Below are positions 564 through 47,210 of a DNA stretch of 52,184 nucleotides, piece by piece (the stretch's first letter is position 1; each line of letters begins with the position of its first letter). Location of the stretch: positions 1 through 52,184 of IMG/VR virus record IMGVR_UViG_3300017706_000575; one strand, given 5' to 3'. The DNA comes from a virus. Its lineage: Duplodnaviria; Caudoviricetes. A program made the translations under genes and the position numbers. The notes under the pieces were generated by a model. The model made no database searches. It was not told where the DNA came from and saw only the letters and a program-made list of their open reading frames with translations.

Positions 564-568
564 AACAG

Positions 569-3684: not shown

Positions 3685-3769
3685 AAAAAAACATAGTAGA
3701 CCAACCATACTGCGAACAGCTTTAAAACCAAATTAAAAATGAATTTGTATGATTGATACTACTATGTTT
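3685..3769 (-). ncRNA. candidate structured sRNA: ~22-bp hairpin with large loop containing UUUGGUUUU, followed by U-tract
   Basis: Minus strand AAACATAGTAG-T-ATCAATCATAC pairs with GTATGGTTGGT-CTACTATGTTT; the two mismatches are G.U pairs only on the minus (sense) strand. Confidence 0.5.
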
Positions 3770-5628: not shown

Positions 5629-5648
5629 TTTGTATATTACTTATATAG
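5629..5648 (+). promoter_or_regulatory. phage late-promoter motif TTTGTATATTA-N4-TATA
   Basis: One of five exact intergenic TTTGTATATTA copies found upstream of plus-strand genes. Confidence 0.65.
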
Positions 5649-12695: not shown

Positions 12696-12844
12696 CAAAA
12701 GATAAATGGCACTTTTGTTATTGGGATGAACCAGATTTCAATACTGATAAAAAAAAATTAATTAACAATAAAGAAACCAAAAAAAATGGCACAACAAATA
12801 GTTCCGGTAGGAAAAAAAATTCTGATAAAACAAAGAGAAGCTGA
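12692..12844 (+). CDS. possible 50-aa microprotein MTKDKWHFCYWDEPDFN...
   Basis: ATGA overlap with the upstream stop; fills the gap before groES and overlaps its start; below ORF-track cutoff. Confidence 0.35.
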   Translation: MTKDKWHFCYWDEPDFNTDKKKLINNKETKKNGTTNSSGRKKNSDKTKRS

Positions 12845-18020: not shown

Positions 18021-18101
18021 TTACTGTTAGCTATATACTGCAAAAAACTTTACTGTTATTACAAATTATATAAGTTTATTACTTTATAACCGATTAAAGT
18101 T

Positions 18102-18121
18102 TTTGTATATTATATATATAA
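18102..18121 (+). promoter_or_regulatory. late-promoter motif TTTGTATATTA-N4-TATA
   Basis: Exact motif about 36 nt upstream of ATG 18148. Confidence 0.65.
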
Positions 18122-18147
18122 GTATTAAATATTAAAACCAACAAGAT

Positions 18148-21145: not shown

Positions 21146-21180
21146 AAAGGGGGGGAGTTAAACCTCCTCCCTTTTTTTTT
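21146..21180 (+). terminator. intrinsic terminator after MCP
   Basis: AAAGGGGGGGAG-TTAAAC-CTCCTCCC followed by T9. Confidence 0.85.
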
Positions 21181-21398: not shown

Positions 21399-21480
21399 AA
21401 GTCAAAAAACTTTAGCAAGCGTAATACCTTGCTTTAGAAATTAGTAATAATAAATGTACATAAATATGTACCTTTGACTT
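21399..21480 (+). ncRNA. candidate three-way-junction cis-regulatory RNA
   Basis: Outer stem AAGTCAAA/TTTGACTT enclosing hairpins AGCAAG/CTTGCT and GTACAT/ATGTAC. Confidence 0.4.
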
Positions 21481-21513
21481 AAAATAGTTATTAATTAATA
21501 AACCAAAAAAAAG

Positions 21514-25402: not shown

Positions 25403-25422
25403 TTTGTATATTATCTATATAG
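25403..25422 (+). promoter_or_regulatory. late-promoter motif TTTGTATATTA-N4-TATA
   Basis: Exact motif upstream of ATG 25442. Confidence 0.65.
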
Positions 25423-25993: not shown

Positions 25994-26020
25994 TAATAAA
26001 GCTTAAACCAATAGAGTAAT

Positions 26021-32200: not shown

Positions 32201-33118
32201 ACAAATGTCACTGCTGGTACCGGAATGTCAGGTGGTGGTAGTTCAGGTTCAGTAACTTTGAACTGTACTATTACTAATAATAATCAGTTAACTAACGGAG
32301 CTGGTTATACAACTAATGTAGGAACTTTAACTGGCGTAGTTGCTGGTAATGCTATTAAAGGTGGAGGAACTTCAGGTTCACCTACTCTATCTCTTGACTA
32401 TACTACTGCTAGTTCTAATGTGGTTATGGGTTGCCCAACACAGGGAGTCCCAGATTCAGATGATTATTTACTATATGGTGCTGATTCTTCAGCATCTGGT
32501 GAAACAATCGTAGCACAGTTTACAGATATACCTTTAAATGTATTTGATAAATATGTAGATACTCTTTCTTTAGCTGGTAATATAGTTCATACAGGTGACA
32601 CAAATACTTATTTTGGATTTCATGCATCAGACCAGTGGAGAGTTGTTACAGGCGGTACTGAAAGATTTGAAGTAAATAATTCTCAAGTTTATGCTACTAG
32701 AGAAATCAGATGTACACAAGATATTATTGCATTTTATTCTGATGAAAGATTAAAGGAAAAGCTGGGTAGTATTGAATCCCCATTAGATAAGATATCTAAG
32801 TTGGATGCATTCTATTATTCAAATAATGATTTAGCAAAAGAAAAAGGATTTGAAGATAATAAGAAACAAATAGGTTTATCTGCTCAGCAAGTAAAAGAAG
32901 TATTACCAGAAGTTGTTCATTCAGCACCATTTGATACTGATTTTGATGAGGATGGTAATATGTTCTCTACATCAGGTGAAGATTATTTAACTCTTAAATA
33001 TGATAGATTAGTACCACTGTTAGTTGAAGGTATTAAAGAACAAACTGAAATTGTAAAAACTCAGCAAAAAGAAATAGATGAGTTAAAAGAAATGGTCAAA
33101 CTTTTATTAAATAAATAA
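29273..33118 (+). CDS. long tail fibre with C-terminal intramolecular chaperone (peptidase S74)
   Basis: 1281 aa with internal repeats; AFYSDERLKE, IGLSAQQVKEVLPEVV, YDRLVPLLVEGIKE plus terminal coiled coil. Confidence 0.88.
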   Translation: MAKILNDLEVTGSIEVDTLVNAASNTNAFLVSDGGLVKFRTGTQLRSDIGAGTGSGSVTSVTVTGSSGLSGTGTVTSSGTITLSNSDKGSSQAIYKNVVADSGGTATANSNNDSITIAGGSNVSTVRSGDTITINATDTTTNNYVSSVSFNTTNGILTLNRSGLSALTVDLDGRYVTSSGVTSIATTNGITGGTITGSGTIQLDSTVVRTTGSQSIAGAKTFTNNLEIGGTTGSTGNAFVVNRGSDGASALTVQNSGEVVIPSNYLYASASGTSIYVQNTAVFRGAIINDVAGAGVNIADDLSINNDLIVSGGDITLGGTGRIQGVDTVSSGTDAANKTYVDNAVAGVPQGDITAVVAGTGLSGGGTSGSVTLNNTITNNNQLTNGEGYTTFAEPGIFSGGGTPTLASGVTAAEVRSLIGAGTSSSSGVTSVATSGSVNGLTLTGGTITSTGTITLGGTLAISNSDWSGTDLSIANGGTGASTASQARTNLGVVNDTGTPAILSNGSTPSLNSGISAAEVRTLIGAGTSSSTGTVTSVAASIDGDGLTLSGTPITSSGTLAFLWAGGSTDYINGQGDITSFPSIPQGDITAVVAGTGMSGGGTSGSVTLNCTVVGDTGVPAILSNGTTPSLNSGISAAEVRTLIGAGTSSSAGVTSVATSGSVNGLTLTGGTITSTGTITLGGTLSINNGDWSGTDLSVANGGTGSSTASGARSNLGVVNDTGTPAILSNGTTPTLNSGISASEVRTLIGAGTSSSTGTVTSVATGGGLDGGTITSSGTLEVEYDSVATNVLFSGFNFTGAQNPENFLMVSDTGINPSRVGYCQIQDLPFTSNVGDITAVTAGTNLTGGGSSGSVTINMATGGVGAGTYGSTSNSTKIDNIVVDAYGRITSVTTGATGAGDITAVTAGDGLTGGGTSGAVTLNVDYVGSDNIILDSPTSATGTLSTSDNILVSNGSNNAVKASISLLPFTNNSGDITNVTAGTGMSGGGSSGSVTLNCTITNNNQLTNGAGYTTNVGTLTGVVAGNAIKGGGTSGSPTLSLDYTTASSNVVMGCPTQGVPDSDDYLLYGADSSASGETIVAQFTDIPLNVFDKYVDTLSLAGNIVHTGDTNTYFGFHASDQWRVVTGGTERFEVNNSQVYATREIRCTQDIIAFYSDERLKEKLGSIESPLDKISKLDAFYYSNNDLAKEKGFEDNKKQIGLSAQQVKEVLPEVVHSAPFDTDFDEDGNMFSTSGEDYLTLKYDRLVPLLVEGIKEQTEIVKTQQKEIDELKEMVKLLLNK
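30317..32395 (+). repeat. intragenic protein repeats in the tail fibre
   Basis: Six GDITAV.AG.G..GGG.SG.VTL-type units (~30317, 31025, 31772, 31967, 32189, 32318) and a ~112-aa duplication (30554-30889 vs 31229-31564). Confidence 0.85.
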
Positions 33119-33119
33119 A

Positions 33120-33596
33120 ATGGCAGTACCTACTTCAGGACCTTTAACATTAGAAGGATTAGCACAAGAGTGTTATTATGGTACTTATGGGAGCGGTATT
33201 ATAACAGATCCTATATACATAAGTGATTTGATTAATGGTGGTAATGCTGCCGGTTCAGGAATGGTGTATCCTCCAATAAATCAACAAAGCCCTCAATTTC
33301 CAGTAAACCCTACATTTAGTGAGTTTTATGGTTATGATTCAACTTATTCTCCTGTAACTACATTCCCTATAGTTTTATACTATGATCAATTTGATCCATT
33401 TGTAGCTTGTGCAAATCCTGGTAATCAACAAACTTATTACATAGATGCTCCTACTTTACAAGGTGCTACTCAGTTATGGGATAATTCTGGTGGAACCATA
33501 CCTTCACAACCTGGTTTTTATGCTCAAACAACAGGTAGACCAAGATACGTTGTAGAGTGGGATGGAATCCAGTTTATTTACAATGCCATTTGTTAA
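33120..33596 (+). CDS. fibre-tip / adhesin-like protein
   Basis: MAVPTSGPLTL...FSEFYGYD N-terminus typical of proteins that follow S74 fibres. Confidence 0.55.
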   Translation: MAVPTSGPLTLEGLAQECYYGTYGSGIITDPIYISDLINGGNAAGSGMVYPPINQQSPQFPVNPTFSEFYGYDSTYSPVTTFPIVLYYDQFDPFVACANPGNQQTYYIDAPTLQGATQLWDNSGGTIPSQPGFYAQTTGRPRYVVEWDGIQFIYNAIC

Positions 33597-33621
33597 GTTT
33601 AAAAATATAAAATAGAATATC

Positions 33622-34110
33622 ATGAATACTAAGAAAAAACCAATTGTAAAAAAGTCAAATACTTTAACTTTAAAATCTAATAAGGTTAAAAAATCTGTTA
33701 GCAAAAAGCAAGTTAAAAAGAAAACAACTAAACCTAAACCTAAAACTAAAGCTAAAGGTCCTATTATTATAAAGCCTGTTTTTAATGAGAAACCTATACA
33801 GTATATAGAGTATTCTTGGGATATTGAAAATATTGAAGTTTCAGAATCTAACACTATTATTAAAATCTTTTATATATACACCGGGATTAGCAAAAATTAT
33901 AAAGTTGAAAAATCTGCTTCATGCTCAGGGCTAATTGAAACGAAACATGATCCAACTAGTAAAGTAGAAACTTCTGATTATAAAAATTTGAAAAAACAAG
34001 ATTTAATTGGTTACATACAATCTTTTGTATCTTTAAGACAAGTACAACAGATGAAAAATATAATAGTTAATGAACTTGGTGATGGTAAAAAAATTATAAA
34101 ACCTTTTTAG
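33622..34110 (+). CDS. hypothetical protein with Lys-rich N-terminus (tail-fibre-assembly-like C-terminus)
   Basis: KKKTTKPKPKTKAK low-complexity region; YSWDIENIE...IFYIYTG module. Confidence 0.55.
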   Translation: MNTKKKPIVKKSNTLTLKSNKVKKSVSKKQVKKKTTKPKPKTKAKGPIIIKPVFNEKPIQYIEYSWDIENIEVSESNTIIKIFYIYTGISKNYKVEKSASCSGLIETKHDPTSKVETSDYKNLKKQDLIGYIQSFVSLRQVQQMKNIIVNELGDGKKIIKPF

Positions 34111-34128
34111 TTTTAGAATAATTAATCA

Positions 34129-34136
34129 TATATTTG
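34129..34136 (+). promoter_or_regulatory. Bacteroidota-type -7 element TATATTTG
   Basis: Intergenic, 23 nt upstream of ATG 34160. Confidence 0.5.
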
Positions 34137-34159
34137 TATAAATTAAAAAATCAAAGACA

Positions 34160-34435
34160 ATGGCAAAATCAAAAATGAGCAAAGTAGCAAAAGATGCAAA
34201 ACCTGTAGATAAAATTGCTGACAAGCAATTACAAGAACTAAAGGAACTTCAATTAAAGTTGAATAATATATTACTTAACTTAGGTAATGCTGAAGTAGCA
34301 AAACAATCTATGCTTACAGCACATATTGCATTAAAGTTGGAATGGGAAACTATGACAACATCACTTGAAGAAGAGTATGGTCAAGTTAATATTAGTCTAG
34401 AAGACGGTGCCATTTCACCAATAGAAGAAGAATAA
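34160..34435 (+). CDS. coiled-coil protein (fibre chaperone-like)
   Basis: Heptad pattern ending LEEEYGQVNISLEDGAI. Confidence 0.65.
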   Translation: MAKSKMSKVAKDAKPVDKIADKQLQELKELQLKLNNILLNLGNAEVAKQSMLTAHIALKLEWETMTTSLEEEYGQVNISLEDGAISPIEEE

Positions 34436-34471
34436 CAAACACTTCTTTTTTTTCATAATTGTTTTTCAAAG

Positions 34472-34512
34472 ATTTTTAAAACCTTTCTTCTTGTTTGGTT
34501 TTAAAAATTTTT
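34472..34512 (+). terminator. AT-rich hairpin or terminator abutting a late promoter
   Basis: Perfect 12-bp inverted repeat ATTTTTAAAACC/GGTTTTAAAAAT followed by T-run. Confidence 0.45.
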
Positions 34513-34529
34513 GTATATTATATATGTAT
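34510..34529 (+). promoter_or_regulatory. late-promoter motif TTTGTATATTA-N4-TGTA
   Basis: Exact TTTGTATATTA upstream of ATG 34571. Confidence 0.65.
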
Positions 34530-34570
34530 AGAGTGTAATAACCAGGTACATTATAGAAAAAAAAGCATTT

Positions 34571-36802
34571 ATGATTCCAACTAACTCCAGCACAACTACA
34601 AATGGTTGTGATAATATATCATCCAATTGTGTTATTTGGCAGGGGCCAGATATTGCTTGTATAGATCTTTGCCATGGAGATACTGTAAGTGACGTAATTG
34701 CAAAATTAGCTACTGAACTTTGTGATCTAATTACAAATGGTGTTATTGCAAATCCAAGTTTGGAAGGGTTAGACCTTACCTGTCTTAACATTCCTGGCAT
34801 AACTCCAACAACTTTAGTTCCTGTTTTACAGGCAATGATTACACAAATTTGTAAAAATGAAGTGTCGTCACAATCTGATGATGGTAGAAAAACACAAGTA
34901 CAAGCAGATTTGCCAGTACTTACTTTACCAGGTTGTTTAGAATATGATGATGCTAATGGTAATAGAGTTACAGAATTACGCTTAGATTTATTTGCACAAA
35001 AAACTGCACAGCAAGTATGTCTCAATCTTGCAGATATACAAGCTGCTCAAATTACGTTAGCTTCACACGGACAAGACATTGCTGAATTACAAGCATGTGT
35101 TCTTCCATGTGATGGTGGGGTAGTAGAAGCACAAATAGTACCAACTTGTGTTAGTACTGTAGGAACTTTAACAAATGTCTCTACAGTTTTATTAGCATTA
35201 GAAATTAGATTTTGCGCATTAGAAAATGCTGTTGGATTACCTTCAGTAATTAATAGTGCTATATCTCAATCTATTATTACAGGATCTTATATTACTTTAA
35301 CTAACAATGCAGTTAGTTATGGTTCTATAACAGGATGGAATAATAGCACTACAAATTTAGCTCAAAGCATGCAAAACGCATGGGTAGTTATAGATGATAT
35401 GTATAGTGCTATTACAAATATTAAAAATAATTGTTGTCCATCAGGATGTGATGGTGTAACATTTGGATATACAACTACTAACATACTTTCAAACGGAGAG
35501 ATTACAGGTTTAAACTTTAATTTCCAAGGATCTACAATACCTGCAGCGTTTAATGATTGTGCAGGAAGCACAGTTATTACAATTACAGATGTGTCTAATA
35601 ATGTTATTACACAAACTGTTAATGTGAGTTCTTTACAAACAGTTTCAGGTGGAATAAATGTTTCTTTACCTACAATAAATACCAATCAAGATTTTACTGC
35701 TAGTGTAGCATTTTGTGTAACAGATGGAGCTGACACATGTTCAGATACTATATTATCAACAATAAATGGAGTACTAGCTTGTCCTCCAACTATTACTGTA
35801 ACACAAATTTCAGGTACAGGAGCAACAGTTTCTTTTGTTAATTTAATTGGAACGACAGCAGTATATACAATTGATATATTAGATCCATCTAATAATGTTG
35901 TTGGAACATTTGTACAAAATTCTCCAGGAACAAATGTATCTCATGTTTTTACAGGTTTAATACCTGGAACTACTTATACTGTTAGGCTTACTGTTGCTCA
36001 AGGCGGTGCAACCCAAGTATGTCCTAATACACAAGCATTTAGCACATTAACTGCAGATGCAGATTGTGACCAAGGAATGGATGTAGCATTTATAGTAGAT
36101 TATTCTGGTAGCATGGGTACTGATATTAATGCTATTAAAAGTGGTATAGCAGGTGTTACTTCAACTATTATAAATGAATCTTCTCCTAATGATTATAGAT
36201 TAAGTTTAGCATTAGCAGATGAGGGACCTACATCAGTACCAAATTATAATACATCCGTTAGTTATGTAGCATTACCTGCTGCACAAAAAGTTATTAATAC
36301 GGGCTCTTCCTCTTTTCAGTTTATTACTGCAATGGAAAAATTTGCAACTAATAATGTTACAACATTTACAGCTCAATTAAATAAAATAAATACAGGTGCT
36401 CCAACTGCAGATATGCCATTGGGTAGCGGTGTAGGTATACCTGAACCAGTAGATATGGCAATTGGTTTGACAGTAGAAGCTAATCAATTTTTAGGAGCAT
36501 TTAGATCGGGTGTTGCTAAATATTTAATTATTATAACTGATGCTTTACCAAGTGGAGATGATGATACATTTGATGCAAGTGATGTTTCTAGATTGAATTC
36601 ATTACAAGTGACATGTTCATTAGCAGGAATTAAATGTTTTGTTTTAGGAGGTGGAGTTAATCAAACATTTACCCAAGGTGGTGTTACCACATATCCATGG
36701 AGGAGTTTTGCTCTAGGAACTGGAGGTAATTGGAATGTTAGTCCATCACCTGCTTCAATTTCTACTGAAATAGTAAACGGTTGTGCACCACCTGCACCAT
36801 AA
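34571..36802 (+). CDS. Cys-rich virion protein with Fn3 and von Willebrand A domains
   Basis: FTGLIPGTTYTVRL (Fn3); MDVAFIVDYSGSM MIDAS motif, FRSGVAKYLIIITDALP (VWA). Confidence 0.75.
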   Translation: MIPTNSSTTTNGCDNISSNCVIWQGPDIACIDLCHGDTVSDVIAKLATELCDLITNGVIANPSLEGLDLTCLNIPGITPTTLVPVLQAMITQICKNEVSSQSDDGRKTQVQADLPVLTLPGCLEYDDANGNRVTELRLDLFAQKTAQQVCLNLADIQAAQITLASHGQDIAELQACVLPCDGGVVEAQIVPTCVSTVGTLTNVSTVLLALEIRFCALENAVGLPSVINSAISQSIITGSYITLTNNAVSYGSITGWNNSTTNLAQSMQNAWVVIDDMYSAITNIKNNCCPSGCDGVTFGYTTTNILSNGEITGLNFNFQGSTIPAAFNDCAGSTVITITDVSNNVITQTVNVSSLQTVSGGINVSLPTINTNQDFTASVAFCVTDGADTCSDTILSTINGVLACPPTITVTQISGTGATVSFVNLIGTTAVYTIDILDPSNNVVGTFVQNSPGTNVSHVFTGLIPGTTYTVRLTVAQGGATQVCPNTQAFSTLTADADCDQGMDVAFIVDYSGSMGTDINAIKSGIAGVTSTIINESSPNDYRLSLALADEGPTSVPNYNTSVSYVALPAAQKVINTGSSSFQFITAMEKFATNNVTTFTAQLNKINTGAPTADMPLGSGVGIPEPVDMAIGLTVEANQFLGAFRSGVAKYLIIITDALPSGDDDTFDASDVSRLNSLQVTCSLAGIKCFVLGGGVNQTFTQGGVTTYPWRSFALGTGGNWNVSPSPASISTEIVNGCAPPAP

Positions 36803-36827
36803 TTAGAAAATAAAATAAAATATAAAA

Positions 36828-37385
36828 ATGGCATGTAATTGTACAAAATGTAGTACCAAATGTAGTTGTTCAGACACTGCATTAACTAATCCATGTACTT
36901 ATACTGATTGTAGTGTGGGCAGTGAGAGGTGTGAAGATATTCAGTGTGCTGAATGTGTAAGTTATTGTGGAACATCTTTTCAAATAGGAACTCCTGAATC
37001 TTTATTATTAATAACTAAAGGTGAAAGGTTAGATTCTATTATTCAAAAGTTTGCTATGATCTTAGCTAATGGTTTGGGTCCTTGTACAAGTGATGATATG
37101 CAACATGATCCATATAACGTATTTGCAGGTTTAATTACTAGTAATACAGCAAATATATTATGGAATGGAACATGGGCATCTAGTTTAGGTATAGATATTT
37201 ATTATGATACGCAAGTAGCTCCAACAGGTTGGACATTAGCAAATCCATCCCCAATTGCAACTACAATATTTAATTATACAATAACAAATTTAACTGCTAG
37301 TACAGCATATAAAGTAAAAGTAGTAGATACAGAGAACACTGGTTGTGAACCAATTGAACTTCTTTTTTCTACTTTAGCTGTATAG
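36828..37385 (+). CDS. Cys-rich protein with C-terminal Fn3 domain
   Basis: MACNCTKCSTKCSC...; YTITNLTASTAYKVKV. Confidence 0.7.
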   Translation: MACNCTKCSTKCSCSDTALTNPCTYTDCSVGSERCEDIQCAECVSYCGTSFQIGTPESLLLITKGERLDSIIQKFAMILANGLGPCTSDDMQHDPYNVFAGLITSNTANILWNGTWASSLGIDIYYDTQVAPTGWTLANPSPIATTIFNYTITNLTASTAYKVKVVDTENTGCEPIELLFSTLAV

Positions 37386-37401
37386 TCATTTATAAAAAAT
37401 A

Positions 37402-37443
37402 CAACAGAAGTGATAGTTTGTTGGTTTTCTATCACAAAAGTTG
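37402..37443 (+). ncRNA. candidate sRNA hairpin with UUUGUUGGUUUU loop
   Basis: CAAC..GTGATAG-TTTGTTGGTTTT-CTATCAC..GTTG immediately before a terminator. Confidence 0.45.
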
Positions 37444-37444
37444 G

Positions 37445-37475
37445 AGAGGTTCCTTTCAGGAGCCTCTTTTTTTTT
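37445..37475 (+). terminator. intrinsic terminator
   Basis: AGAGGTTCCT-TTC-AGGAGCCTCT followed by T-run. Confidence 0.85.
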
Positions 37476-37489
37476 AATAATTAATTCAT

Positions 37490-37497
37490 TATATTTG
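37490..37497 (+). promoter_or_regulatory. Bacteroidota-type -7 element TATATTTG
   Basis: Between the terminator and ATG 37519. Confidence 0.5.
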
Positions 37498-37518
37498 GTA
37501 AATTTAAAAACTTTTGGT

Positions 37519-38742
37519 ATGGAAGATATTAAACAGAAGGTAATCAATTCATTACGTTGGAAAAAGAGTACTGCTGTATCTGCTAGGCGATGTAATATGA
37601 CTGAAGAAGAATACATCAAAGTCAAAAAACAAATCTTTAAAGACAGAAAATCCAAGAGAAAAAAATCATTATTTTTTAATAAAGTTATAGATAATGCACA
37701 GATTACTGAGGCAATAGATTTAGAAAAAGGTGAAGGTAAAATATCAGGTACATTTGATCATGAACCTAAAAGTGCAGAAGAAATAATTCAGTTATTAAAA
37801 ATAGATACTGACAGATGGAAACTATCTCAGTATTGGAATAAACAAATGAGTGATCACTGGAGAGTATCAGCATTAGTAAGTCAAATTAAAAATCCAGAAG
37901 AAAAATTATTTCAAGACCTTCTTAAAAATTGGAAACCTAAAAAACATAAGATAACAAATAGCAGATTGGGAAATAAATCTTTTAATGATCCCCATTGTGC
38001 AGTTATATCTCTTCAAGATATACACTTTGGTAAAGAGGGTAATGATACTATTGATAAAGATTTTGAAGACACAATTAAAAATTTAGTTCAACGAGCTAAT
38101 GCTATTCACTATATTGAAACAATGTATTTTGTTGTAGGAGGTGATTTAATGAACATGGATACCTTTACTGGAACAACTACAGGAGGAACACCTGTAGATA
38201 ATTGTATGACTGCCACAGAAGCTTATATGCAGGCATTTGATGCAATGCATTGGGCAGTAACATATATTAAATCTTTTTGTGATAAATTGGTAGTGGTATA
38301 TATTCCAGGAAATCATGATAGGCTTTCTTCTTTTCATTTAGCTCATGCACTTTCAAAGTCAATAGAATGTGATAAAATAACTTGGGATGTAAAATATGAA
38401 GAAAGAAAAGTTCATGTTTGGCATAACAACTTTAATGCTTTTGAGCACGGAGATAAACGTAGCAAAAATAATCCTTTAATATATGCATCAGAATATCCTG
38501 AGCAATGGGGTAGCACTACAAATAGAACTTTATTTAAAGGCCATATACATACAGATAGAAAGGTAGAATATATGACCTCTAATGAGACAGCAGGTTTTAT
38601 AGAAAAAACTTTACCTAGTCTGGGTAAAACTGATTACTATCATTATAGCAATAAATTTGTAGGCAATAGAAGATCAGGAAAGTTAGAGATCCAGCATCCT
38701 ACAATGGGTAATATATGTGTATTAACTCATCAAGCCCTATAA
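37519..38742 (+). CDS. calcineurin-like metallophosphoesterase (start re-called at 37519)
   Basis: DIHFGK, GGDLMNMD, PGNHD, EHGD, GHIH motifs; ORF-track TTG start at 37441 overlaps the terminator region. Confidence 0.85.
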   Translation: MEDIKQKVINSLRWKKSTAVSARRCNMTEEEYIKVKKQIFKDRKSKRKKSLFFNKVIDNAQITEAIDLEKGEGKISGTFDHEPKSAEEIIQLLKIDTDRWKLSQYWNKQMSDHWRVSALVSQIKNPEEKLFQDLLKNWKPKKHKITNSRLGNKSFNDPHCAVISLQDIHFGKEGNDTIDKDFEDTIKNLVQRANAIHYIETMYFVVGGDLMNMDTFTGTTTGGTPVDNCMTATEAYMQAFDAMHWAVTYIKSFCDKLVVVYIPGNHDRLSSFHLAHALSKSIECDKITWDVKYEERKVHVWHNNFNAFEHGDKRSKNNPLIYASEYPEQWGSTTNRTLFKGHIHTDRKVEYMTSNETAGFIEKTLPSLGKTDYYHYSNKFVGNRRSGKLEIQHPTMGNICVLTHQAL

Positions 38743-38744
38743 TC

Positions 38745-38779
38745 AGACCAATTAAATTTCATTAAGTGGTCTTTTTTTT
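38745..38779 (+). terminator. intrinsic terminator whose T-tract overlaps the next promoter motif
   Basis: AGACCA..TTAA...TTAA.TGGTCT followed by T-run. Confidence 0.65.
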
Positions 38780-38796
38780 GTAAATTATAAATATAA
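38777..38796 (+). promoter_or_regulatory. late-promoter motif variant TTTGTAAATTA-N4-TATA
   Basis: One mismatch to consensus; directly upstream of ATG 38801. Confidence 0.55.
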
Positions 38797-38800
38797 CTGT

Positions 38801-39364
38801 ATGATAAACAATTTTAAAAAACCTGATTTAACTGCCTCTAGATACAGAGAAAAGAGATTGGGTTTATTAAATGAAGAAACAATAAAGGAATTTAAGGAAA
38901 AAAAGCCTTTGTATTCTAATATTGACAATGATAAATTAAAAAAAATAATTAAACTATATAATGTAAAATTATGGAGAGCTGTTATTGAGTTTAGAGATGG
39001 AGTTGAATTACCTGATTCATTAGGTTATTTATTTATAGGAACGTGCTCTGCCTCTAAAACAATAAACACTAATTATAAATTATCTAATCAATATGGAAAA
39101 GTATTACAAAATAAGAATTGGGAGACTGATGGGAATTTAGGAAAAATATTTTATACAAATTGGTCAACAAAGTACAGATATAAAAATAGAGAGCTATGGA
39201 GATTTGTAGCATGTAGAGAATTTAAAAGAGCAGTGGCAAAAGAGTATCCGGCAAATTGGACAAAATATGTTACTATGAAAAACAAATATAGAGTTGCTCA
39301 TTTATATGATAATACAGAACAATCAAAAGAAGCTTTGAAGAATTATAATGAATTTGAAACATAA
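38801..39364 (+). CDS. IHF/HU-like protein preceding tail genes
   Basis: IIKLYNVKLWRAVIEFRDGVELPDSLGYLFI...WRFVACREFKRAV; matches crAss order IHF-like, tail tubular, tail stabilisation. Confidence 0.6.
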   Translation: MINNFKKPDLTASRYREKRLGLLNEETIKEFKEKKPLYSNIDNDKLKKIIKLYNVKLWRAVIEFRDGVELPDSLGYLFIGTCSASKTINTNYKLSNQYGKVLQNKNWETDGNLGKIFYTNWSTKYRYKNRELWRFVACREFKRAVAKEYPANWTKYVTMKNKYRVAHLYDNTEQSKEALKNYNEFET

Positions 39365-39370
39365 ACGAAA

Positions 39371-40042
39371 ATGTCAACAATAGCACAAACAATATCAAGA
39401 ATTAGAGGTCAGGTTAAAGCTGAAGTTCAAGATGCTTTTGTTACAGATAGATATATTTATAGTTTAATAGAAAAGTTTGCTCAAGTATTAATGAGAAGAC
39501 AAGACTATGCTAATAAACTTATGAAGTTCAATGCTGTATGGAAAGCCTTACCTTATGTTGAGTTAATAGATGTAGATAAGATAGAAGCTGGATGTTCTGG
39601 AATCCAAAGTGGTTGTACAATAAAACGTACAAAACTTAGATTACCATCAATGATTGAAGGCTACTGGGGACCGCTTATACGTACTGTAAGCTCTATAGAT
39701 GGTTCTCAAGAGCTTCAAGCAACTCAACCGGGTACATATACTTCAATGACTAAAACCACGTCATTTAAGTACAATACAACAAGATATTTTTGGTGGCTAG
39801 ATGGATATATATATTCTCCTAATATAGAATGGGATGCTTTAAAAATAGAAGGTGTATTTAATTCTGACATTACTAAATGGAATTGTGATGAGGAAGACGA
39901 TTGTACACCACGTTATGAACAACCAATTTATATTCCAGAAGCATTATTTGCAGAGATTGAACAACAAGTTATAAATGTTATGATGAATACTATGAAAATT
40001 CCTGCAGAAGATTCAGATAACAAAATTAATATTAATAGATAA
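39371..40042 (+). CDS. tail ring / tubular protein
   Basis: DAFVTDRYI, IKRTKLRLP, YFWWLDGYIY; position. Confidence 0.6.
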   Translation: MSTIAQTISRIRGQVKAEVQDAFVTDRYIYSLIEKFAQVLMRRQDYANKLMKFNAVWKALPYVELIDVDKIEAGCSGIQSGCTIKRTKLRLPSMIEGYWGPLIRTVSSIDGSQELQATQPGTYTSMTKTTSFKYNTTRYFWWLDGYIYSPNIEWDALKIEGVFNSDITKWNCDEEDDCTPRYEQPIYIPEALFAEIEQQVINVMMNTMKIPAEDSDNKININR

Positions 40043-40998
40043 TGGGAGTATCAAATAAATATAGAACCTTTACCTCATTGATGGAAGATGTTTCTATTGA
40101 TTTTTCTACATATGCGTTAGAAGGATTAATTGAACCACAGCAACTTATTAAAGTAGCAACAAGAGTTAACTATGATCTTGGATTGAGAATACATAGAACT
40201 AAAGAAGTTATTATTGATATTGAACATGGAAGAGGTCAATTGCCCATGGATTTTGCATATTTAAATTATGCATTTTTATGTGGTGATTATAAGATTAATG
40301 CAACAATGCCATCAGGGACACATGTAGAAACATTTAATGATGTCCCATATGTGCCTGCTCCTGGTGAGTCTGGACCTTGTGATGATCCAAGTTGTAAAGA
40401 CGTTTGTGTAATTGAAACATGTGATGGCAAAAATAGCCATCAGCTAGTTCAAAGAATAGGACCCAATCAGTTTAGAACTTTTGATACATGGACTCAATTA
40501 AGGATTCAAGATGTTAATGATACAGTATGCTATTGTCCTGCATTGGGTGCACAGGCACCTGATATTGCACAAATAGAAGATGGTTTTTTAGTTACAACAT
40601 TTAGAACGGGAAAGGTATATTTAAGTTATCAAGGAGCTATGGAAGCACCTAATGGTGACTTGTTAGTATTAGATCAACCATATTGCAATGAATATTATGA
40701 ATATGCTTTAAAACAAAGAATATTAGAAAACATGATTTGGCAAGGAGAAAGCGTTAGTCAACAGTTAGGTTTAGTTGAGACTAGATTGAGGGCGGCTAGA
40801 AACAATGCTTTAAGTTTTGTTAATACACCAAACTTCCAGGAAATGCAAAAAGTGTGGACTATGAATAGAAGAGCACAGTACCATAATTATTATAACATGT
40901 TTTTAAGTTACGCACCAGTAAATCCAAGAGTGGCTCCAATAAGAGGTAACTCATTATCTGGATCTAATAGTGGTAGCAATGTAACATCATCATGCTAA
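40042..40998 (+). CDS. tail tubular / ring protein (P22 gp4-like in crAss phages)
   Basis: IDIEHGRGQLPMDF, GFLVTTFRTGKVYLSYQG..LLVLD; directly upstream of the tail stabilisation gene. Confidence 0.65.
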   Translation: MGVSNKYRTFTSLMEDVSIDFSTYALEGLIEPQQLIKVATRVNYDLGLRIHRTKEVIIDIEHGRGQLPMDFAYLNYAFLCGDYKINATMPSGTHVETFNDVPYVPAPGESGPCDDPSCKDVCVIETCDGKNSHQLVQRIGPNQFRTFDTWTQLRIQDVNDTVCYCPALGAQAPDIAQIEDGFLVTTFRTGKVYLSYQGAMEAPNGDLLVLDQPYCNEYYEYALKQRILENMIWQGESVSQQLGLVETRLRAARNNALSFVNTPNFQEMQKVWTMNRRAQYHNYYNMFLSYAPVNPRVAPIRGNSLSGSNSGSNVTSSC

Positions 40999-41015
40999 TA
41001 AAGAAGTAATTTATT

Positions 41016-44000
41016 ATGGCTAAGCAAAATAGAAACTCTAAGACAAGTACATCTGTAATTACTAATTCATTCATAAAAGGAATGAATAAAGATATTACAC
41101 AGTCTATGGAACCAGCACAAAGTTGGTGGCATGCACGTAATGCTGCTAATAATTCTACAGATGGTGACTTAGGTGTAATAGGTAATGAGCCTTCTAATTT
41201 GCAATGTGGAGTTATTCCATATACAATTATTGGTGCAATACATAGATTTGGTGATGAATGGATAATTTATTCAACTGATGATGTTAATTCTGAAATTGGC
41301 AGATTTGATGATAGTGAGTGTAAGTATACAACTATTGTAAATGACCCTTGTTTAAATTTTAACAGAAAATATTTAATTACAGGTGCAGCAAAAGAAAACT
41401 TTGATTGCACTTGGGCAGTATATTGGGATGATGGAAATAATCCATCACGTTATCTAAATGTTGATGATGTTCCTTATAAGCAATATATAAGTTCTGCTCC
41501 AGGAGATCCTTGTATAGTATATAGTGATATAGAACCAAAAGAATTAGACTGTGAAAAAATAAGATTAGCTCCTTTACTTGATACACCTTGTATTAGTTTA
41601 ACAAAAAATGTTGATGGGGGAATGCTGAATAATGGTAGTTATCAAGCATTTATTGCATATACAGAAAATGAAATAAAGGTTACAGATTATATAGGTGTAT
41701 CTAATGTTCAATCATTATGGAGTCATGAAGGAAGCGGTGGTTCTTTAGATATTTCAGTTTCTAATTTAGATACTGATTATGAGTTTTATGAGTTGACATT
41801 GTTAATTAGACAACAAGGTCAAGTATTTGCAAAACGTATAGGTTTATATAGTACGCAGCAGCAAAACATAAATGTAGATTTCATTAGTGATGAATTAATA
41901 GCTGTTGATTTAAAGATAATTCCTATGCGTAGCCCTGCTTATGAGAAGTCAGAGGCAATGTATGTTGTTAATGATTATTTAATTAGACAAGGACCAACTG
42001 AACAATTTGATTTTAATTATCAACCTATTGCAAATGAAATCAAAGTAAATTGGGTTGCAAATCAAATAGATTCTCAGTACTATCATATAGGTGGTAACAA
42101 AACAGGTTTTTTAAGAGATGAACAATATGCTTTTTTTATAAGATGGATTTATAACACAGGAGAAAGATCTTCATCATATCACATACCGGGCAGAGCACCA
42201 GAACTATATAATGTTGCAACTCAACAATTTACAAATGTACCAGGCCCTGATGTTTATTATGAAAATGAAAATATAATTAATCCCAATGCATTAAATCCTA
42301 CCGGAGAGCCTTTATATAAAATATTTAATACAGGAGATATACTAGCCCAAGGTTTAAGTGAAGTTCAAGAAGACGGATCTTTAGTTATTGGAAGAGGTAA
42401 AATGGGATATTGGGAATCTACAGAAAGATATCCTATCAACAAACCTGATATATGGGGTGATCTATGCGGTCTTCCTATTAGACATCATAAGATGCCTACT
42501 GAAGAAAGAGGTGGTTCAAATTCACCATTACACATTAGCACTACTGCTGGAGATCTTATAAATTTATTAGGAGTAGAATTTACTAACATAGGCAGACCAA
42601 AAAATAATGATGGATCTTATATTCAAAATGTAGTAGGTTATGAAATATTAAGAGGTTCAAGAGCTGGAGCTAAATCAATTTTGGCAAAAGGTTTATTTAG
42701 GAATATGCGTAAGTACAATGTTCCTAATGCTGAAAATTTAATTGGTGGAAGTGTAACAGGGTTGTATGCTAATTATCCTTACAATGATTTAAGACCTGAT
42801 ATGTATTTTTGGGATAAAATAACACCACCTGGTAATCCATTATTTGAACCACTTAAAAGAACAGAGAGTTGTGACAATCTTACTGAATCAATTCAAGATT
42901 TTCCACCTTTAGGGACTCCAAATTCAGGAACAGATGGCTATTCTAAAAAAGTATTTACATTTTCTTCACCGGATTTAATGTTTACTAAGCCTTTTTTAGA
43001 TGCTTATGAAACTAGAATTTATGGGCAACTAGATGGCAGACAATCAGGTAATTTTATACCATCAGAAGATCATCCACAGTTTAAATTACTTAGGAATAGT
43101 TCAGCACTAATGGGTGCTATTATAGGTATTGGTTATGCTATATCTCAAGTCCGAGGTGAAACATCTGAAGAGATGACTTCATCTAAAATGCGTTATCAAT
43201 CAACTGGTGACTTTGCAGGAATAGCTGCAAATGCTGTAGCTAACAATATAGCAATTGCAGTCCCTCCATTTCCAATACCTGTAGCTGCAGGAGCTATAGT
43301 TGGTATGCAACAAGGAACTTTAGCAGCTGGTCTAGCTGATATATGGGCCTTTGGTGCTGCACAGGGTGGTATAGATAATTTTGTTCAAAATACTAATGCT
43401 GCTGTAGGATTGCTTCCTGGAACAGAGGCAGGTGATTACAAACTTACAATAAAAAGAAATAGCCCGATTTCTAATTTTCCCAATGCATTAAAAGCTGTTG
43501 TAGGTATTTTTACTTCAGGAGCAAACATTGCTATTGGAGGGAATGAAATAATAGATTTGATTTACAATTTAGTTAAAAAATCTAGTTTTGTTTTAAAATA
43601 TAATTCAGCAGGTTTCTTTAATAAATTTAGAAAAAATAACATTAACGATACATTTAGATTTAAAAATACAGATTCTAATTATTTAGGTTCTTCATTTCAA
43701 ACTTTTAATCAAGGTGAATATAAAATAAATAATTTATTTAGACCATCTACAGTTGCTGTTGCATTGGAGAAAGATTTACAAGATCCTGCAGTTCAAGATA
43801 GATCAAGATTTACTGTTGGAGGGGAAGTAGATCTAGGTGGTGGTTCTGGTCAAGCTACTCCTTTTGGAGATACGTATTTAGAAAAGCCTTCTTCTGAAAG
43901 ACAAACTAACATATCTGCTTTTTATGGAGCATTGAAGTTTAATTTTGATAATCAATACGGTCAGTTAAGTGGAATAAAACAAGTTCCAATGAGAGGCTGT

Positions 44001-47000
44001 GTTGAATTACTAGATCCAACAAAACCTCCTCAATTTTTGTATTCTTCTAAAGCTATATTTGCAGGAGATGTATATATAAATAGATATACAGAGAAAGTAA
44101 TAATGCCAATTTTTGCTCAATATTTATTAGGGCAACCAGATGAGTATACTTATGATTATTCTCAACATGTTAATATACCATATCCAAGATTTTGGTTAAA
44201 CTCTCAAAAGTTTGACATGACTAAGATAGGTAAATTTATTGGAAACCCAATTACAGCTATTGCTTCTCTTGGTAATGGTTTTTTTACCGATTTACTACCT
44301 AATGATTTATTTTATTTAGATAGAGGCCAAAATAGTTGCCAGAATGCTTTTGGTGCTATTTTTAATAATAATGATCCTAATCCAATGTTTGCTATGAGAT
44401 TTGCATATATGTATTCTCATTCAAATGGTATCTTGGATTTCTTTGTAGAATCAGAGATTAATTTAGCTCAAAGAGATTGGGAAGATACAAGAGCAAGACA
44501 AATATATAGTGTTTATAATTATAATGATAGAGAGGAATTATTTCATGCTCAAATAGAAAAAGTAGATAATTTTTATAAGTATGATGAATCATTAAGTATA
44601 GGAAAATTTCCAACTCAACTTTCAAGTTTTGGAGAAGTTCAACCATTATATTATGATCCTTATGTTGCAGCTAATTGTTATGTGAGTAGACCTAAAAGAT
44701 TAATATATTCTTTGCAAGCACAAGAGGAAGCAAGAAAAGATTTTTGGAGAGTATTTTTACCTCTTAATTATAAAGACTTTAAAAATAAAGTAAGTGTAAT
44801 TAAACCCATAAATAAAAACGGAGCAATAGTTTTCTTTCCTTATTTATCACCTCAGATGTTTCCAGGAACAGATGTTTTAAAAACTGGATTAGATACAAAG
44901 ATAACAATTGGAGATGGTGGATTATTTGCACAACCCATGCAAAATATTGCTAATGCAGATCTTTCAAATGAATATGGATCTAATGAAAGTTTAAGGAGTG
45001 CTATGAATACTCCTCAAGGTTTATTCTTTATTTCACAAGCACAAGGAAAAATATTTCAATATGCGGGTAGAGGATTAGATCCTATATCTAATAGAGGAAT
45101 GAAGTGGTGGTTTAATAAATATTTGCCATCACAACTAGTTAAGCAATATCCTGATTTAGAATATTCTGTTTTATCTGATAATCCAGTTATTGGAGTTGGC
45201 TGTCATACAATATATGATGCCAATGATGATATTGTTTACTTTATGAAGAAAGACTTTAGAGTAAAGAAAGAATATATAAGCAGTGTATCTTATACAGAAA
45301 AAAGAGGTTTTACAGTAAGACTTGATACTGATGGGGGTAAATATAGTTTTCCTATTCAAATAGGTGATCCATTATATTTTGATGATTGTTGTTGGACTAT
45401 AAGTTATGATCCAAAAGCAAAAGCTTGGATATCTTTTCATGATTGGTGTCCTGAATTAGCATTACCAAGTATAAATCATTTTTTTACTACTAAGAGTATT
45501 GAAACTGATGAGCCGCAGTGTCCACCAGGATATACATTTAATGGTGCAACAGGACTATGTGAATTAGTTGTAAATGAAACTGAATTGTCAACTGTTACTG
45601 TTAGTGAATTAAATTCAATTGTAACAGGAGGTTCTCAAGATTGTTTATTAGATATTGTAATAGCAATGGATGATTCAGGTAGTACGGGTGGTACTAATCC
45701 AGGATCTATTGGAGCTGCTCAATTAACTTGGTTAAATTCATTTTTAACTAATCCTGCTATAACTGGGCCAATGGCTGCAGGAGATATGCAAATAGGTTTT
45801 ACTAAATGGAATTCTACTAGCACAGCTTATCAAATACCTTATCTTTTAGGTACATACAGTATGAGTAATACTGTAACACCAACGCAAGTTAATAATTGGT
45901 ATACTACTAATTGGTGTGTTAATCCTGGGTGCGGAACAAGTGTACCACTTGGATTGGCTAGTGCTGAGAATTGGCTTAATAACAAAGCTTCTAGTCAACT
46001 AGGTGATAGAACTGCACAACCAAACTTTAAACAGATTATTATTTTAATTACTGATACTACCAGCAACCCTGGAGCTATTGGGTGTCCGTATCAAGCAGTG
46101 GGTGTATCACCTTCATCAACAGGTCCTGCAAATCAAAATGTATTTGCTTTATTTTGTGGTACTGGAAGTAGTACACCATCTAACCCACTTGTATTAGGTA
46201 ATATTACTTGTACATCTGGTCCTGTTAATGTAGATGGTTATCAATTTGGTATTGCCGTTAGTAATCCAGCAGGAATAGATGTTGTTGCAGATACAATTGC
46301 AACAAGTGTTTGTTCTCTTCCATTTGAATGTAATTGTGCACCAGGATATACCACGGTTTATTTAGATCCTGTAACAGGAACTTATACTGCACCTACAGGA
46401 GTATGTGATGATATTACACCACCTATTTGTAGAAAAGTAGAATGTGCTTGCCCAACATCACCTCCAAATTTTCTTACAACAATAACAGGGACATGTGATG
46501 ATGTTTATTTAACAGGTGATCCTGATTATGTAAATCCAGATCCACAAGTTTGTGATTATTATTTAAAATTAACTACTCCAGCTAGTTTTAAATATGGTAC
46601 GTTATGGAGACATAATGTTAGATGTGATGATTTTGCAAATTTTTATAATGTTAGTTATCCATGGGAAGTTGAACTTGTAGCTAATAGTGGACAACAGGTT
46701 AATACTGTTAGAAGCATGGAATATCAATTAGAATGTTATGTCTATAAAGGAGATATGGGTAATGCATGTAATGATGATAAGTGGGAAGATTTAGATTTTA
46801 ATTTTGATCAATCTATAATTTATAATAATGAACAAGTATCAGGATTATTACAATTAACACCTACACCATACAATCAACCTCTTTTAAATTTAACTTATCC
46901 TATAATTGGTACTAGTAGCATTGAAATTTTATGTTCTAAAGTTGAACAGAAATATAGATTTAATCAATTTTGGGACATAACTAATGATAGAGGAGAGTTT

Positions 47001-47210
47001 ACTATTGCTGAGCAACCTATATGGAAAACACAGCCAAATGGATATATAAAAGATTTAAATGCAATTAATTTAAATTATAATAAGCCGCCATTGCAACATA
47101 AGAAGTTTAGACATTACTATACTAACATAATATTACGTAGAGTTAATTCTTCAAACAGAAAGATGTTGTTAAGATTAAATAATAGTAAATTGTTAACATC
47201 CCTTAGATAA
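41016..47210 (+). CDS. tail stabilisation / muzzle protein (P22 gp10-like) with inserted VWA and Cys-rich modules
   Basis: 2064 aa; FIKGMNKD..ARNA..IGNEPSN, GFLRDEQYAFFIRW, IFAGDVYINRY, WTISYDPKAKAWISFHDW, LWRHN; VWA LDIVIAMDDSGS. Confidence 0.8.
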   Translation: MAKQNRNSKTSTSVITNSFIKGMNKDITQSMEPAQSWWHARNAANNSTDGDLGVIGNEPSNLQCGVIPYTIIGAIHRFGDEWIIYSTDDVNSEIGRFDDSECKYTTIVNDPCLNFNRKYLITGAAKENFDCTWAVYWDDGNNPSRYLNVDDVPYKQYISSAPGDPCIVYSDIEPKELDCEKIRLAPLLDTPCISLTKNVDGGMLNNGSYQAFIAYTENEIKVTDYIGVSNVQSLWSHEGSGGSLDISVSNLDTDYEFYELTLLIRQQGQVFAKRIGLYSTQQQNINVDFISDELIAVDLKIIPMRSPAYEKSEAMYVVNDYLIRQGPTEQFDFNYQPIANEIKVNWVANQIDSQYYHIGGNKTGFLRDEQYAFFIRWIYNTGERSSSYHIPGRAPELYNVATQQFTNVPGPDVYYENENIINPNALNPTGEPLYKIFNTGDILAQGLSEVQEDGSLVIGRGKMGYWESTERYPINKPDIWGDLCGLPIRHHKMPTEERGGSNSPLHISTTAGDLINLLGVEFTNIGRPKNNDGSYIQNVVGYEILRGSRAGAKSILAKGLFRNMRKYNVPNAENLIGGSVTGLYANYPYNDLRPDMYFWDKITPPGNPLFEPLKRTESCDNLTESIQDFPPLGTPNSGTDGYSKKVFTFSSPDLMFTKPFLDAYETRIYGQLDGRQSGNFIPSEDHPQFKLLRNSSALMGAIIGIGYAISQVRGETSEEMTSSKMRYQSTGDFAGIAANAVANNIAIAVPPFPIPVAAGAIVGMQQGTLAAGLADIWAFGAAQGGIDNFVQNTNAAVGLLPGTEAGDYKLTIKRNSPISNFPNALKAVVGIFTSGANIAIGGNEIIDLIYNLVKKSSFVLKYNSAGFFNKFRKNNINDTFRFKNTDSNYLGSSFQTFNQGEYKINNLFRPSTVAVALEKDLQDPAVQDRSRFTVGGEVDLGGGSGQATPFGDTYLEKPSSERQTNISAFYGALKFNFDNQYGQLSGIKQVPMRGCVELLDPTKPPQFLYSSKAIFAGDVYINRYTEKVIMPIFAQYLLGQPDEYTYDYSQHVNIPYPRFWLNSQKFDMTKIGKFIGNPITAIASLGNGFFTDLLPNDLFYLDRGQNSCQNAFGAIFNNNDPNPMFAMRFAYMYSHSNGILDFFVESEINLAQRDWEDTRARQIYSVYNYNDREELFHAQIEKVDNFYKYDESLSIGKFPTQLSSFGEVQPLYYDPYVAANCYVSRPKRLIYSLQAQEEARKDFWRVFLPLNYKDFKNKVSVIKPINKNGAIVFFPYLSPQMFPGTDVLKTGLDTKITIGDGGLFAQPMQNIANADLSNEYGSNESLRSAMNTPQGLFFISQAQGKIFQYAGRGLDPISNRGMKWWFNKYLPSQLVKQYPDLEYSVLSDNPVIGVGCHTIYDANDDIVYFMKKDFRVKKEYISSVSYTEKRGFTVRLDTDGGKYSFPIQIGDPLYFDDCCWTISYDPKAKAWISFHDWCPELALPSINHFFTTKSIETDEPQCPPGYTFNGATGLCELVVNETELSTVTVSELNSIVTGGSQDCLLDIVIAMDDSGSTGGTNPGSIGAAQLTWLNSFLTNPAITGPMAAGDMQIGFTKWNSTSTAYQIPYLLGTYSMSNTVTPTQVNNWYTTNWCVNPGCGTSVPLGLASAENWLNNKASSQLGDRTAQPNFKQIIILITDTTSNPGAIGCPYQAVGVSPSSTGPANQNVFALFCGTGSSTPSNPLVLGNITCTSGPVNVDGYQFGIAVSNPAGIDVVADTIATSVCSLPFECNCAPGYTTVYLDPVTGTYTAPTGVCDDITPPICRKVECACPTSPPNFLTTITGTCDDVYLTGDPDYVNPDPQVCDYYLKLTTPASFKYGTLWRHNVRCDDFANFYNVSYPWEVELVANSGQQVNTVRSMEYQLECYVYKGDMGNACNDDKWEDLDFNFDQSIIYNNEQVSGLLQLTPTPYNQPLLNLTYPIIGTSSIEILCSKVEQKYRFNQFWDITNDRGEFTIAEQPIWKTQPNGYIKDLNAINLNYNKPPLQHKKFRHYYTNIILRRVNSSNRKMLLRLNNSKLLTSLR

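Follow-up and report, generated by a model that had tools for sequence, protein, structure and literature searches.

A hairpin coupled to an intrinsic terminator occupies positions 37402–37475 of IMG/VR record IMGVR_UViG_3300017706_000575, a sequence of 52,184 bases from an uncultured marine crAss-like phage (completeness estimate 45%), the whole of which was analyzed and is referred to here as the window. This hairpin is a real and strongly selected RNA element that had previously gone uncurated. Its 12-nucleotide (nt) loop, UUUGUUGGUUUU, is complementary to a conserved motif a few bases before the start codon of a presumed scaffold gene on the same strand, and this suggests that two RNAs pair to control the synthesis of head proteins. 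That the loop pairs with AAAACCAAC, itself looped out at the AUG of the scaffold gene, and to a lesser extent with leaders containing AAAACCAA, most likely hindering 30S binding, is assigned a probability just short of even (approximately 0.45). This anti-leader reading, as yet unproven, is the best available one and is now backed by comparative data.

The hairpin-terminator element and its conservation

Together the hairpin and terminator occupy the 133-nt gap between a gene for a tail-like protein of 185 amino acids (aa), whose stop codon lies upstream (37383–37385), and an exonuclease-like gene that begins downstream with the ATG at 37519. On the plus strand, the element opens with CAAC (37402–37405), the 5′ half of an outer helix (P1) that the fold pairs with 37440–37443 and that lies within an A-rich ACAACA flank. 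The 5′ arm of a stem of seven base pairs (bp), P2, follows (GTGATAG, 37410–37416, recognized from sequence and fold), and then the 12-nt loop (37417–37428; TTTGTTGGTTTT as DNA), which is the invariant core and the proposed pairing surface, and the 3′ arm of P2 (CTATCAC, 37429–37435, recognized from sequence, fold and covariation). The 3′ half of P1, GTTG (37440–37443), sits inside the linker AAAAGTTGG that leads from the hairpin to the predicted terminator, a stem-loop of 11 bp with a 3-nt loop (37444–37468) that ends in a run of nine T (37467–37475). These coordinates and strings agree, on re-reading of the sequence, with those given for the hairpin in an initial annotation made from the sequence alone. 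The RNA fold of 37386–37490 has a free energy of −27.0 kcal/mol (z = −4.20), a stability that none of 200 shuffles attained, and it leaves the 12-nt loop unpaired, placing the conserved seed in an open region. A pattern scan separately calls the terminator at 37443–37469 with 12 pairs, and the combination that defines an intrinsic terminator, a G+C-rich stem of 11–12 bp followed by a U-run, is seen in all relatives viewed. No Rfam family was found for the hairpin at gathering threshold over the window, and the best match in a search of 37300–37560 at E-values up to 10 was suhB/mmgR, with 23 bits against a cut-off of 41.

Relatives were fetched via the neighboring exonuclease-like protein (80 loci, 62–84% protein identity), so that the sample is blind to the loop sequence. 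The element stands at the same place in 79 of the 80 loci, the exception being truncated 63 nt ahead of the gene. The survey of related genomes envisaged in the initial annotation bears out the conservation of the loop: in an alignment of 52 unique sequences, drawn from the window, the 79 related loci and two further loci (L081 and L082), all twelve loop columns are invariant and stand on a covarying stem, the mean column identity being 82%, while both the sequence and the loop length of the adjoining terminator are free to vary. Standard pairs fill 98.4% of the 364 cells of stem P2, with changes on both sides in four of its seven pairs. The covariation score of this stem was reached by none of 500 column shuffles, and sliding the partner by one to three columns lowers the pairing to 29–81%. 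G-U pairs are frequent in P2 (44 of 52 sequences at one pair, 23 of 52 at another) and would be C-A on the opposite strand, indicating that the folded species is the plus strand RNA. The ACAACA flank is kept in most of the 52 sequences, without covariation, and is absent in locus L071; the GTTGG of the linker is nearly invariant.

Two more protein-based scans were started from divergent members. They added a clade that carries another stem (GGTGATAA/TTATTACC) with the same loop, and three loop variants, which are confined to a few divergent contigs: the first has an extra internal U, the second an inserted A, and the third ends in GGUAUAU. A loop-plus-stem pattern scan of IMG/VR gave 99 matching stretches, and 21 loci from outside the first 80 all have the same order of stop codon, hairpin, linker, terminator, further intergenic stretch and next gene. 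A covariance model built from the alignment has a single match in the window, at 71.6 bits, the runner-up scoring 16.5; three complete relatives of 113–115 kb have one match apiece. With one copy per genome the hairpin is not a paralogous family, and the initial suggestion of a family of such small RNAs is lost with it.

The complementary motif in late-gene leaders

The presumed scaffold gene (438 aa, plus strand, ATG at 18148) owes its designation to a positional guess, as it fills the gap between the portal and capsid genes, and to the acidic, charged sequence of its product. Its leader contains, as had been claimed at the outset, a complement of 11 nt to the loop: the 11-mer AAAACCAACAA (18134–18144, plus strand) is the exact complement of loop positions 2–12, stops 3 nt short of the ATG and is found twice in the window, here and as the reverse complement of the loop. 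Fetching relatives via the 438-aa protein gave 80 loci (66–89% identity) with 58 unique upstream sequences, and a block …ATTAAAACCAAC… is common to these leaders, few bases before the ATG. Between −30 and −1, AAACCAAC is present in 53 of the 58 unique leaders; the counts are 45 for AAAACCAAC, 32 for the 11-mer and 16 for the complete 12-mer. Among all called genes, the scaffold start region is predicted to form the best duplex with the loop in four of four genomes. The bare 12-nt loop gives −11.4 to −13.0 kcal/mol there, against a gene median of about −5, and −13.2 kcal/mol is obtained in the window when the closing bases are added. A second block of this intergenic region, GTTAGCTATATACTGC (18026–18041, plus strand), lies just after the portal gene, approximately 110–120 nt upstream of the ATG of the 438-aa gene, and is nearly invariant in relatives; a conserved AAGTTTA is found farther downstream.

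The complement in the scaffold leader is itself predicted to be displayed in a loop. A weak A-U hairpin (AUAUU/GAUAU, 18129–18149, plus strand) would hold 18134–18144 as its 11-nt loop, with a stem formed by 18129–18133 and 18145–18149 whose 3′ arm takes in the first two bases of the AUG. Over the 86-nt piece that was folded, the structure is weak (−4.7 kcal/mol, z = 0.21). Among 44 motif-anchored unique leaders, a flanking stem of at least 5 bp is found in 35 and one of at least 6 bp in 26, compared with a mean of 3.9 leaders (maximum 10) when the 3′ flank is shuffled, and the arms covary between classes (TAATATT/AATATTA, TAATTAT/ATAATTA, TTATT/AATAA and ATAAT/ATTAT). Exchanging 3′ flanks among relatives gives a mean stem of 4.87 bp against the 5.72 bp observed, a value that none of 500 swaps reached, and the signal for a leader hairpin, while modest, is real. 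The complementary bases are thus predicted to lie in loops of both partners, in kissing-loop geometry: with the scaffold target forming the loop of a weak A-U hairpin that runs into the AUG, contact would be made loop to loop.

The core of the complement, AAACCAA, recurs before other late genes. It is found at 12774–12780 in the leader of a gene for a GroES-like protein (ATG at 12786), at 18135 in the scaffold leader, at 21500–21506 before a 338-aa gene (ATG at 21514) that is a secondary candidate target, and at 26005–26011 before a 64-aa gene (ATG at 26021), in each case on the plus strand and 5–10 nt before the ATG; the initial annotation had placed it correctly ahead of the groES, 21514 and 26021 genes. 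In leaders of the 338-aa gene (−30 to −1), AAACCAA is present in all 47 unique related sequences and AAAACCAA in 41, at 0 to 10 nt from the ATG, and these leaders match only the eight 3′ bases of the loop. AAAACCAA also stands before small genes resembling the 64-aa gene in two complete relatives. The region upstream of the 338-aa gene (21430–21513, and loci L294–L373) shares a short hairpin of the TGTACATAATTATGTAC type with covarying arms, followed in order by TTTTGAC, ATTATTAAT and the AAAACCAA word, and has the look of a terminator running into a promoter whose −35 and −10 boxes are sigma-70-like.

Word enrichment was calculated for 351 crudely called genes of the window and the three complete relatives (called by a longest-open-reading-frame heuristic in the relatives), comparing positions −30 to −1 with gene bodies and ranking 387 words. 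Most of the top-enriched leader words consist purely of A and T, the exceptions being TTAAAACC (11 leader against 6 gene-body occurrences, odds ratio 84), TAAAACCA (12 against 13) and AAAACCAA (15 against 32, odds ratio 21.5, third of the 387 words). An absence of AAACCAA enrichment near starts had been named in advance as grounds for abandoning the proposal; the word proved to be enriched there across the four genomes, with an odds ratio of 12.4 against 6–8 for A/T words. In leaders the motif is strand-specific, with 23 sense occurrences and 1 antisense, the corresponding numbers in gene bodies being 82 and 52. The motif-bearing genes that recur between genomes are the 438-aa, 338–339-aa, approximately 60-aa and GroES-like genes, together with others that lie outside the incomplete window.

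It could be that these words act on DNA, with a phage regulator or polymerase factor reading AAAACC(AAC) near late-gene starts and the hairpin representing a site in the opposite orientation. Several late genes do have the motif a short way downstream of a promoter-like sequence, and the idea gains slightly from a conserved inverted repeat at 34472–34508, in which AAAACC … GGTTTT form opposed half-sites beside a promoter-like motif. It is nevertheless improbable: stem covariation with frequent G-U pairs has no role in duplex DNA, the motif stands anywhere from 0 to 10 nt from the ATG in leaders of the 338-aa gene, and the bias of 23 sense to 1 antisense is what an RNA signal or a directional promoter component would show, and not a symmetric operator.

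Proposed pairing in trans and competing explanations

A promoter-like motif of 17 nt, TTGTATATTAYNTATAT, has four matches in the window against 0.02 expected, all on the plus strand: at 5630–5646, at 18103–18119 upstream of the scaffold-capsid unit, at 25404–25420, and at 34511–34527 at the head of the hairpin-bearing unit (genes 34571–37385). Each copy stands at the end of a long intergenic gap, 24–50 nt before the next ATG, and the motif is probably a late-promoter class of the phage. Two transcription units that would share this promoter class can be read from motifs rather than from RNA ends. The first appears to extend from 18103 to about 21175, carrying the 438-aa gene and the capsid gene, after which a strong terminator is located (21146–21175); the second appears to extend from 34511 to 37475, carrying a 743-aa gene with fn3, followed by the 185-aa gene and the hairpin. 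As the terminator after the capsid gene separates the units, any pairing between loop and leader would occur in trans, between two late RNAs that would be expressed together. In the relatives viewed, the sequence ahead of the hairpin is conserved from the stop codon onward, and none of the four TTGTATATTAYNTATAT copies in the window lies just upstream of the hairpin, so that the element is best read as a feature of the 3′ untranslated region (3′UTR) and not as a transcript with its own promoter. Of the sequencing runs listed, none is recorded as RNA, and contigs from two of them fall in other parts of 33000–42000, with no coverage of 37214–38116.

The terminator also bears on a cis arrangement, in which the loop would pair with the 5′ leader of one long late mRNA and circularize it. 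The scaffold leader and the hairpin do share a strand, 19 kb apart, and the intervening genes are co-directional. However, the terminator after the capsid gene and the promoter-like motifs at 25404 and 34511 make a single transcript unlikely, and the first gene of the hairpin unit (34571) lacks a complementary leader (best duplex −6.9 kcal/mol); cyclization was rejected as extremely improbable. A shorter cis partner is conceivable among loci L001–L041, where in the main clade the last codons of the upstream gene (Cys-Lys-Pro-Ile-Glu), approximately 45 nt before the hairpin, spell AAACCAA; other clades lack this and the window has AACCAA, and the match is probably incidental. A packaging site is unlikely as well: in two records bearing terminal repeats, the distances between the element and the ends are approximately 6 kb and 17.9 kb.

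In the mechanism that is favored, the covarying 7-bp stem would hold out the invariant loop at the 3′ end of a late tail-gene unit, where it could act inside the full mRNA or as a trimmed 3′ fragment of approximately 75 nt comprising hairpin and terminator. The loop would pair in trans with the conserved AAAACCAAC(AA) in the presumed scaffold leader and, through UUGGUUUU, more weakly with a handful of further late-gene leaders that carry AAAACCAA. The kissing contact would cover the landing place of the 30S subunit, in a phage whose genes do without Shine-Dalgarno sequences: the words GGAG and GAGG occur at −20 to −5 in none of the 55 genes of the window. Scaffold translation would then most likely fall as RNA of the tail unit accumulates, coupling head and tail synthesis. 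We infer the meeting of the two RNAs, the sign of the effect, the processing and the host. The anti-leader idea put forward in the initial annotation is thus partly supported, through selection on the loop, a conserved and start-enriched complement and leaders devoid of Shine-Dalgarno words, and has shed the small RNA family. A wider version, in which the non-Shine-Dalgarno leader word UUAAAACCAAC in an AUG hairpin marks a set of late genes in the lineage and a single tail-operon 3′UTR loop kisses these leaders, is put forward tentatively, as a possibility on the doubtful side. Such a circuit would adjust timing or stoichiometry through RNA alone, making translation of the head scaffold depend on how much tail mRNA is present, in a host phylum that initiates translation with no Shine-Dalgarno pairing.

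Several observations weigh against the proposed pairing. The base composition of the leaders is 55% A, and a U-rich loop therefore matches them easily. Window-wide, AAACCAA is not enriched (18 found, 15.25 expected). The 11-nt leader match is reached by 21 of 219 loop permutations in the window, and the true best match is reached by 27, 27 and 3 of 219 permutations in the three complete relatives, while the number of leaders with a match of at least 8 nt is ordinary, 93 of 219 permutations reaching the count. The leader hairpin is weak, with A-U pairs only, and its mean stem remains at 4.87 bp after flanks are swapped. The first three U of the loop are invariant even though the leader bases facing them vary (CAACAA, CAACAT, CAACGT and CAATAT), and a contig with the altered loop UUUGUUGGUAUAU retains an unchanged leader, AAAAACCAACAU, with only seven pairs left. 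All compared genomes belong to one lineage, which brings their joint conservation near to a single evolutionary observation. The leader motif may, moreover, be conserved on its own account, for instance as a transcript-start region, a translation enhancer or a protein operator, with complementarity to the loop secondary.

Within one genome, then, the complementarity is unremarkable and the weight rests on conservation. The 11-mer with at most one mismatch occurs six times in the window against 2.95 expected, a count reached by 6 of 100 shuffles. Where permutations are restricted to those with no U-run longer than four, as in the real loop, none of 79 equals the real values in all four genomes, though the runners-up come close to them. 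One divergent contig has changed on both sides, with loop UUUUGUUUGGUUUU (…GUUUGG…) and leader AAAAACCAAAUAUU (…CCAAAU…) forming nine Watson-Crick pairs, a G-U and one more pair, where the usual loop would form eight pairs; another, with an inserted A in the loop, is neutral and keeps a 10-nt match. As the loop hardly varies, this comparison for compensation is low in power. A search for the leader motif in the absence of the hairpin returned no match to the covariance model in four of five further contigs, all four being fragments that end before the expected position.

The unimpressive permutation controls in single genomes and the lack of window-wide enrichment of AAACCAA also lend something to a simpler explanation, that the hairpin merely stabilizes the 3′ end or aids termination and that the leader match is a chance meeting of U-rich with A-rich sequence; tandem hairpins are common at 3′ ends. 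This is quite improbable, as it does not account for an invariant 12-nt loop beside a terminator that drifts and a protein only 62–84% identical, or for a complementary word that is separately conserved and enriched at starts.

More serious is the possibility that the hairpin is an RNA site for a phage or host protein, serving nut/boxB-like control of read-through toward the next operon or as a processing or stability site, with the complementarity coincidental or secondary. Total invariance of the loop is best explained in this way, every loop base and the closing G…CU being unchanged even where the facing leader bases vary. The lambda nut site consists of boxA and boxB, the latter with a 5-nt purine-rich loop, and the phage element resembles it in having, ahead of a terminator, a conserved linear sequence and then a hairpin that keeps its loop while its stem covaries: the place is fixed, with a 9-nt linker before the terminator in all relatives, and the A-rich ACAACA precedes the hairpin as boxA precedes boxB. 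In contrast to boxB, the loop is 12 nt long and rich in U and G. There is no candidate protein, a search for an N-like protein not having been part of the analysis, and the available portion of the RbpB paper provides no usable short motif for that host RNA-binding protein. A protein site, like the nut model, would also leave two things unexplained: that the loop exactly complements the C-containing leader word with the strongest enrichment, and that this word is displayed in a hairpin loop at the scaffold AUG. Of the 220 sequences that nine U and three G can make, approximately 20 would by a rough count contain UUGGUUUU, as the loop does, and by a rough estimate the word is far rarer in unconstrained 12-mers. 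On balance, a protein site is considered unlikely.

The proposed pairing has partial counterparts in known systems. The C-rich loops of Staphylococcus aureus RNAIII and the c4 RNA of phages P1 and P7, which acts on the ant region, are hairpin-loop antisense regulators of ribosome-binding sites. The phage element resembles them in having a short conserved loop sequence complementary to the start region of an mRNA made elsewhere and in ending with an intrinsic terminator; it differs in that the target is an A/C-rich leader motif in place of a Shine-Dalgarno sequence and the putative regulator is the apparent 3′ end of a structural-gene mRNA and not a gene of its own. In the plasmid kissing-loop antisense pairs CopA/CopT and RNAI/RNAII, complementary bases likewise lie in hairpin loops of both partners, as is predicted here. 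Each of those pairs is transcribed from the two strands of a single locus, with full complementarity, whereas the phage partners are encoded on one strand, 19 kb apart, have 9–12 nt in common and possess larger loops (10–12 nt). In the icaR mRNA of S. aureus, the 3′UTR pairs with the 5′UTR, both ends belonging to one mRNA. Like icaR and 3′UTR-derived small RNAs, the phage element places a regulatory sequence between stop codon and terminator that is complementary to a start region; unlike in icaR, the two phage units are separated by a terminator and promoter-like motifs. Small RNAs derived from 3′ ends are the subject of a published review (PMC9438474).

RNA regulation in crAss-like phages is little explored, and little is known of translation control without Shine-Dalgarno pairing. 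A literature search retrieved no conserved regulatory RNA in crAss-like phages among the top-ranked matches, and the accessible part of the phi14:2 preprint describes middle promoters and no hairpin, and so has no bearing on the element. If the pairing is true, it would provide a compact example of antisense control aimed at a leader signal other than Shine-Dalgarno, a late-gene set recognizable by a defined motif in the leaders, and a new conserved RNA motif, present in approximately 100 public viral contigs, from which a family could be curated. If it is false, the invariant loop still marks a strongly selected RNA-protein or RNA-RNA contact beside the terminator.

Genomic setting and other hairpins

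Besides the GroES-like protein, the window encodes a P22-like portal (15264–18020), a Crassvirus major capsid protein (19515–21134) and a Crassvirus muzzle protein (41016–47210). The presumed scaffold protein and the 338-aa protein gave no match in a sequence search of the PDB. Three tandem tRNA genes (401–642, minus strand) are the only Rfam matches of the window at gathering threshold. A DNA search of a phage collection for cultured relatives gave no match. At the protein level, the nearest cultured relative of the capsid protein is the cyanobacterial Leptolyngbya phage Lbo-JY46 (28% identity over 99% of the length), with Cellulophaga phages ranking behind it at 25% identity, and the exonuclease-like protein has distant matches only (below 30% identity), Lbo-JY46 among them. 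With a cyanophage as the nearest cultured capsid relative, the Bacteroidota host assumed in the initial annotation is not established. Such a host is suggested by the crAss-like structural genes, the A-rich leaders lacking Shine-Dalgarno words and a TAnnTTTG-like box at 37490–37497, which we take to correspond to the Bacteroidota consensus.

Two other hairpins had been said to present the same TTGGTTTT as the loop. The string is present in both, but the structures differ from the focal hairpin and neither is matched by the covariance model. At 3685–3769 (minus strand), only the UUGG of TTGGTTTT falls in the apical loop of an extended 85-nt hairpin that is followed by a T-run (−27.3 kcal/mol, z = −7.6); this structure lies between minus-strand genes and is far longer than an ordinary terminator. 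At 34465–34515, TTGGTTTT lies within the 3′ arm of a stem and not in a loop. The hairpin there (34472–34508, plus strand) is long and A/U-rich, with AAAACC paired with GGUUUU near its tip, and borders the promoter-like motif at 34511 on its upstream side. Across 30 related instances, which represent 22 unique contexts, the 3′ side of the hairpin, (C/T/G)TTGTTTGGTTTTA(A/G)AA, is almost invariant and its 5′ arm shows mainly wobble-compatible substitutions. Twelve bases of this hairpin, TTGTTTGGTTTT, agree with the focal loop at all but two positions. The structure could represent a terminator for the preceding gene that overlaps DNA upstream of the promoter, or else another sequence of anti-leader type; relevant to the latter, leaders containing AAAACCAAAC exist in relatives.

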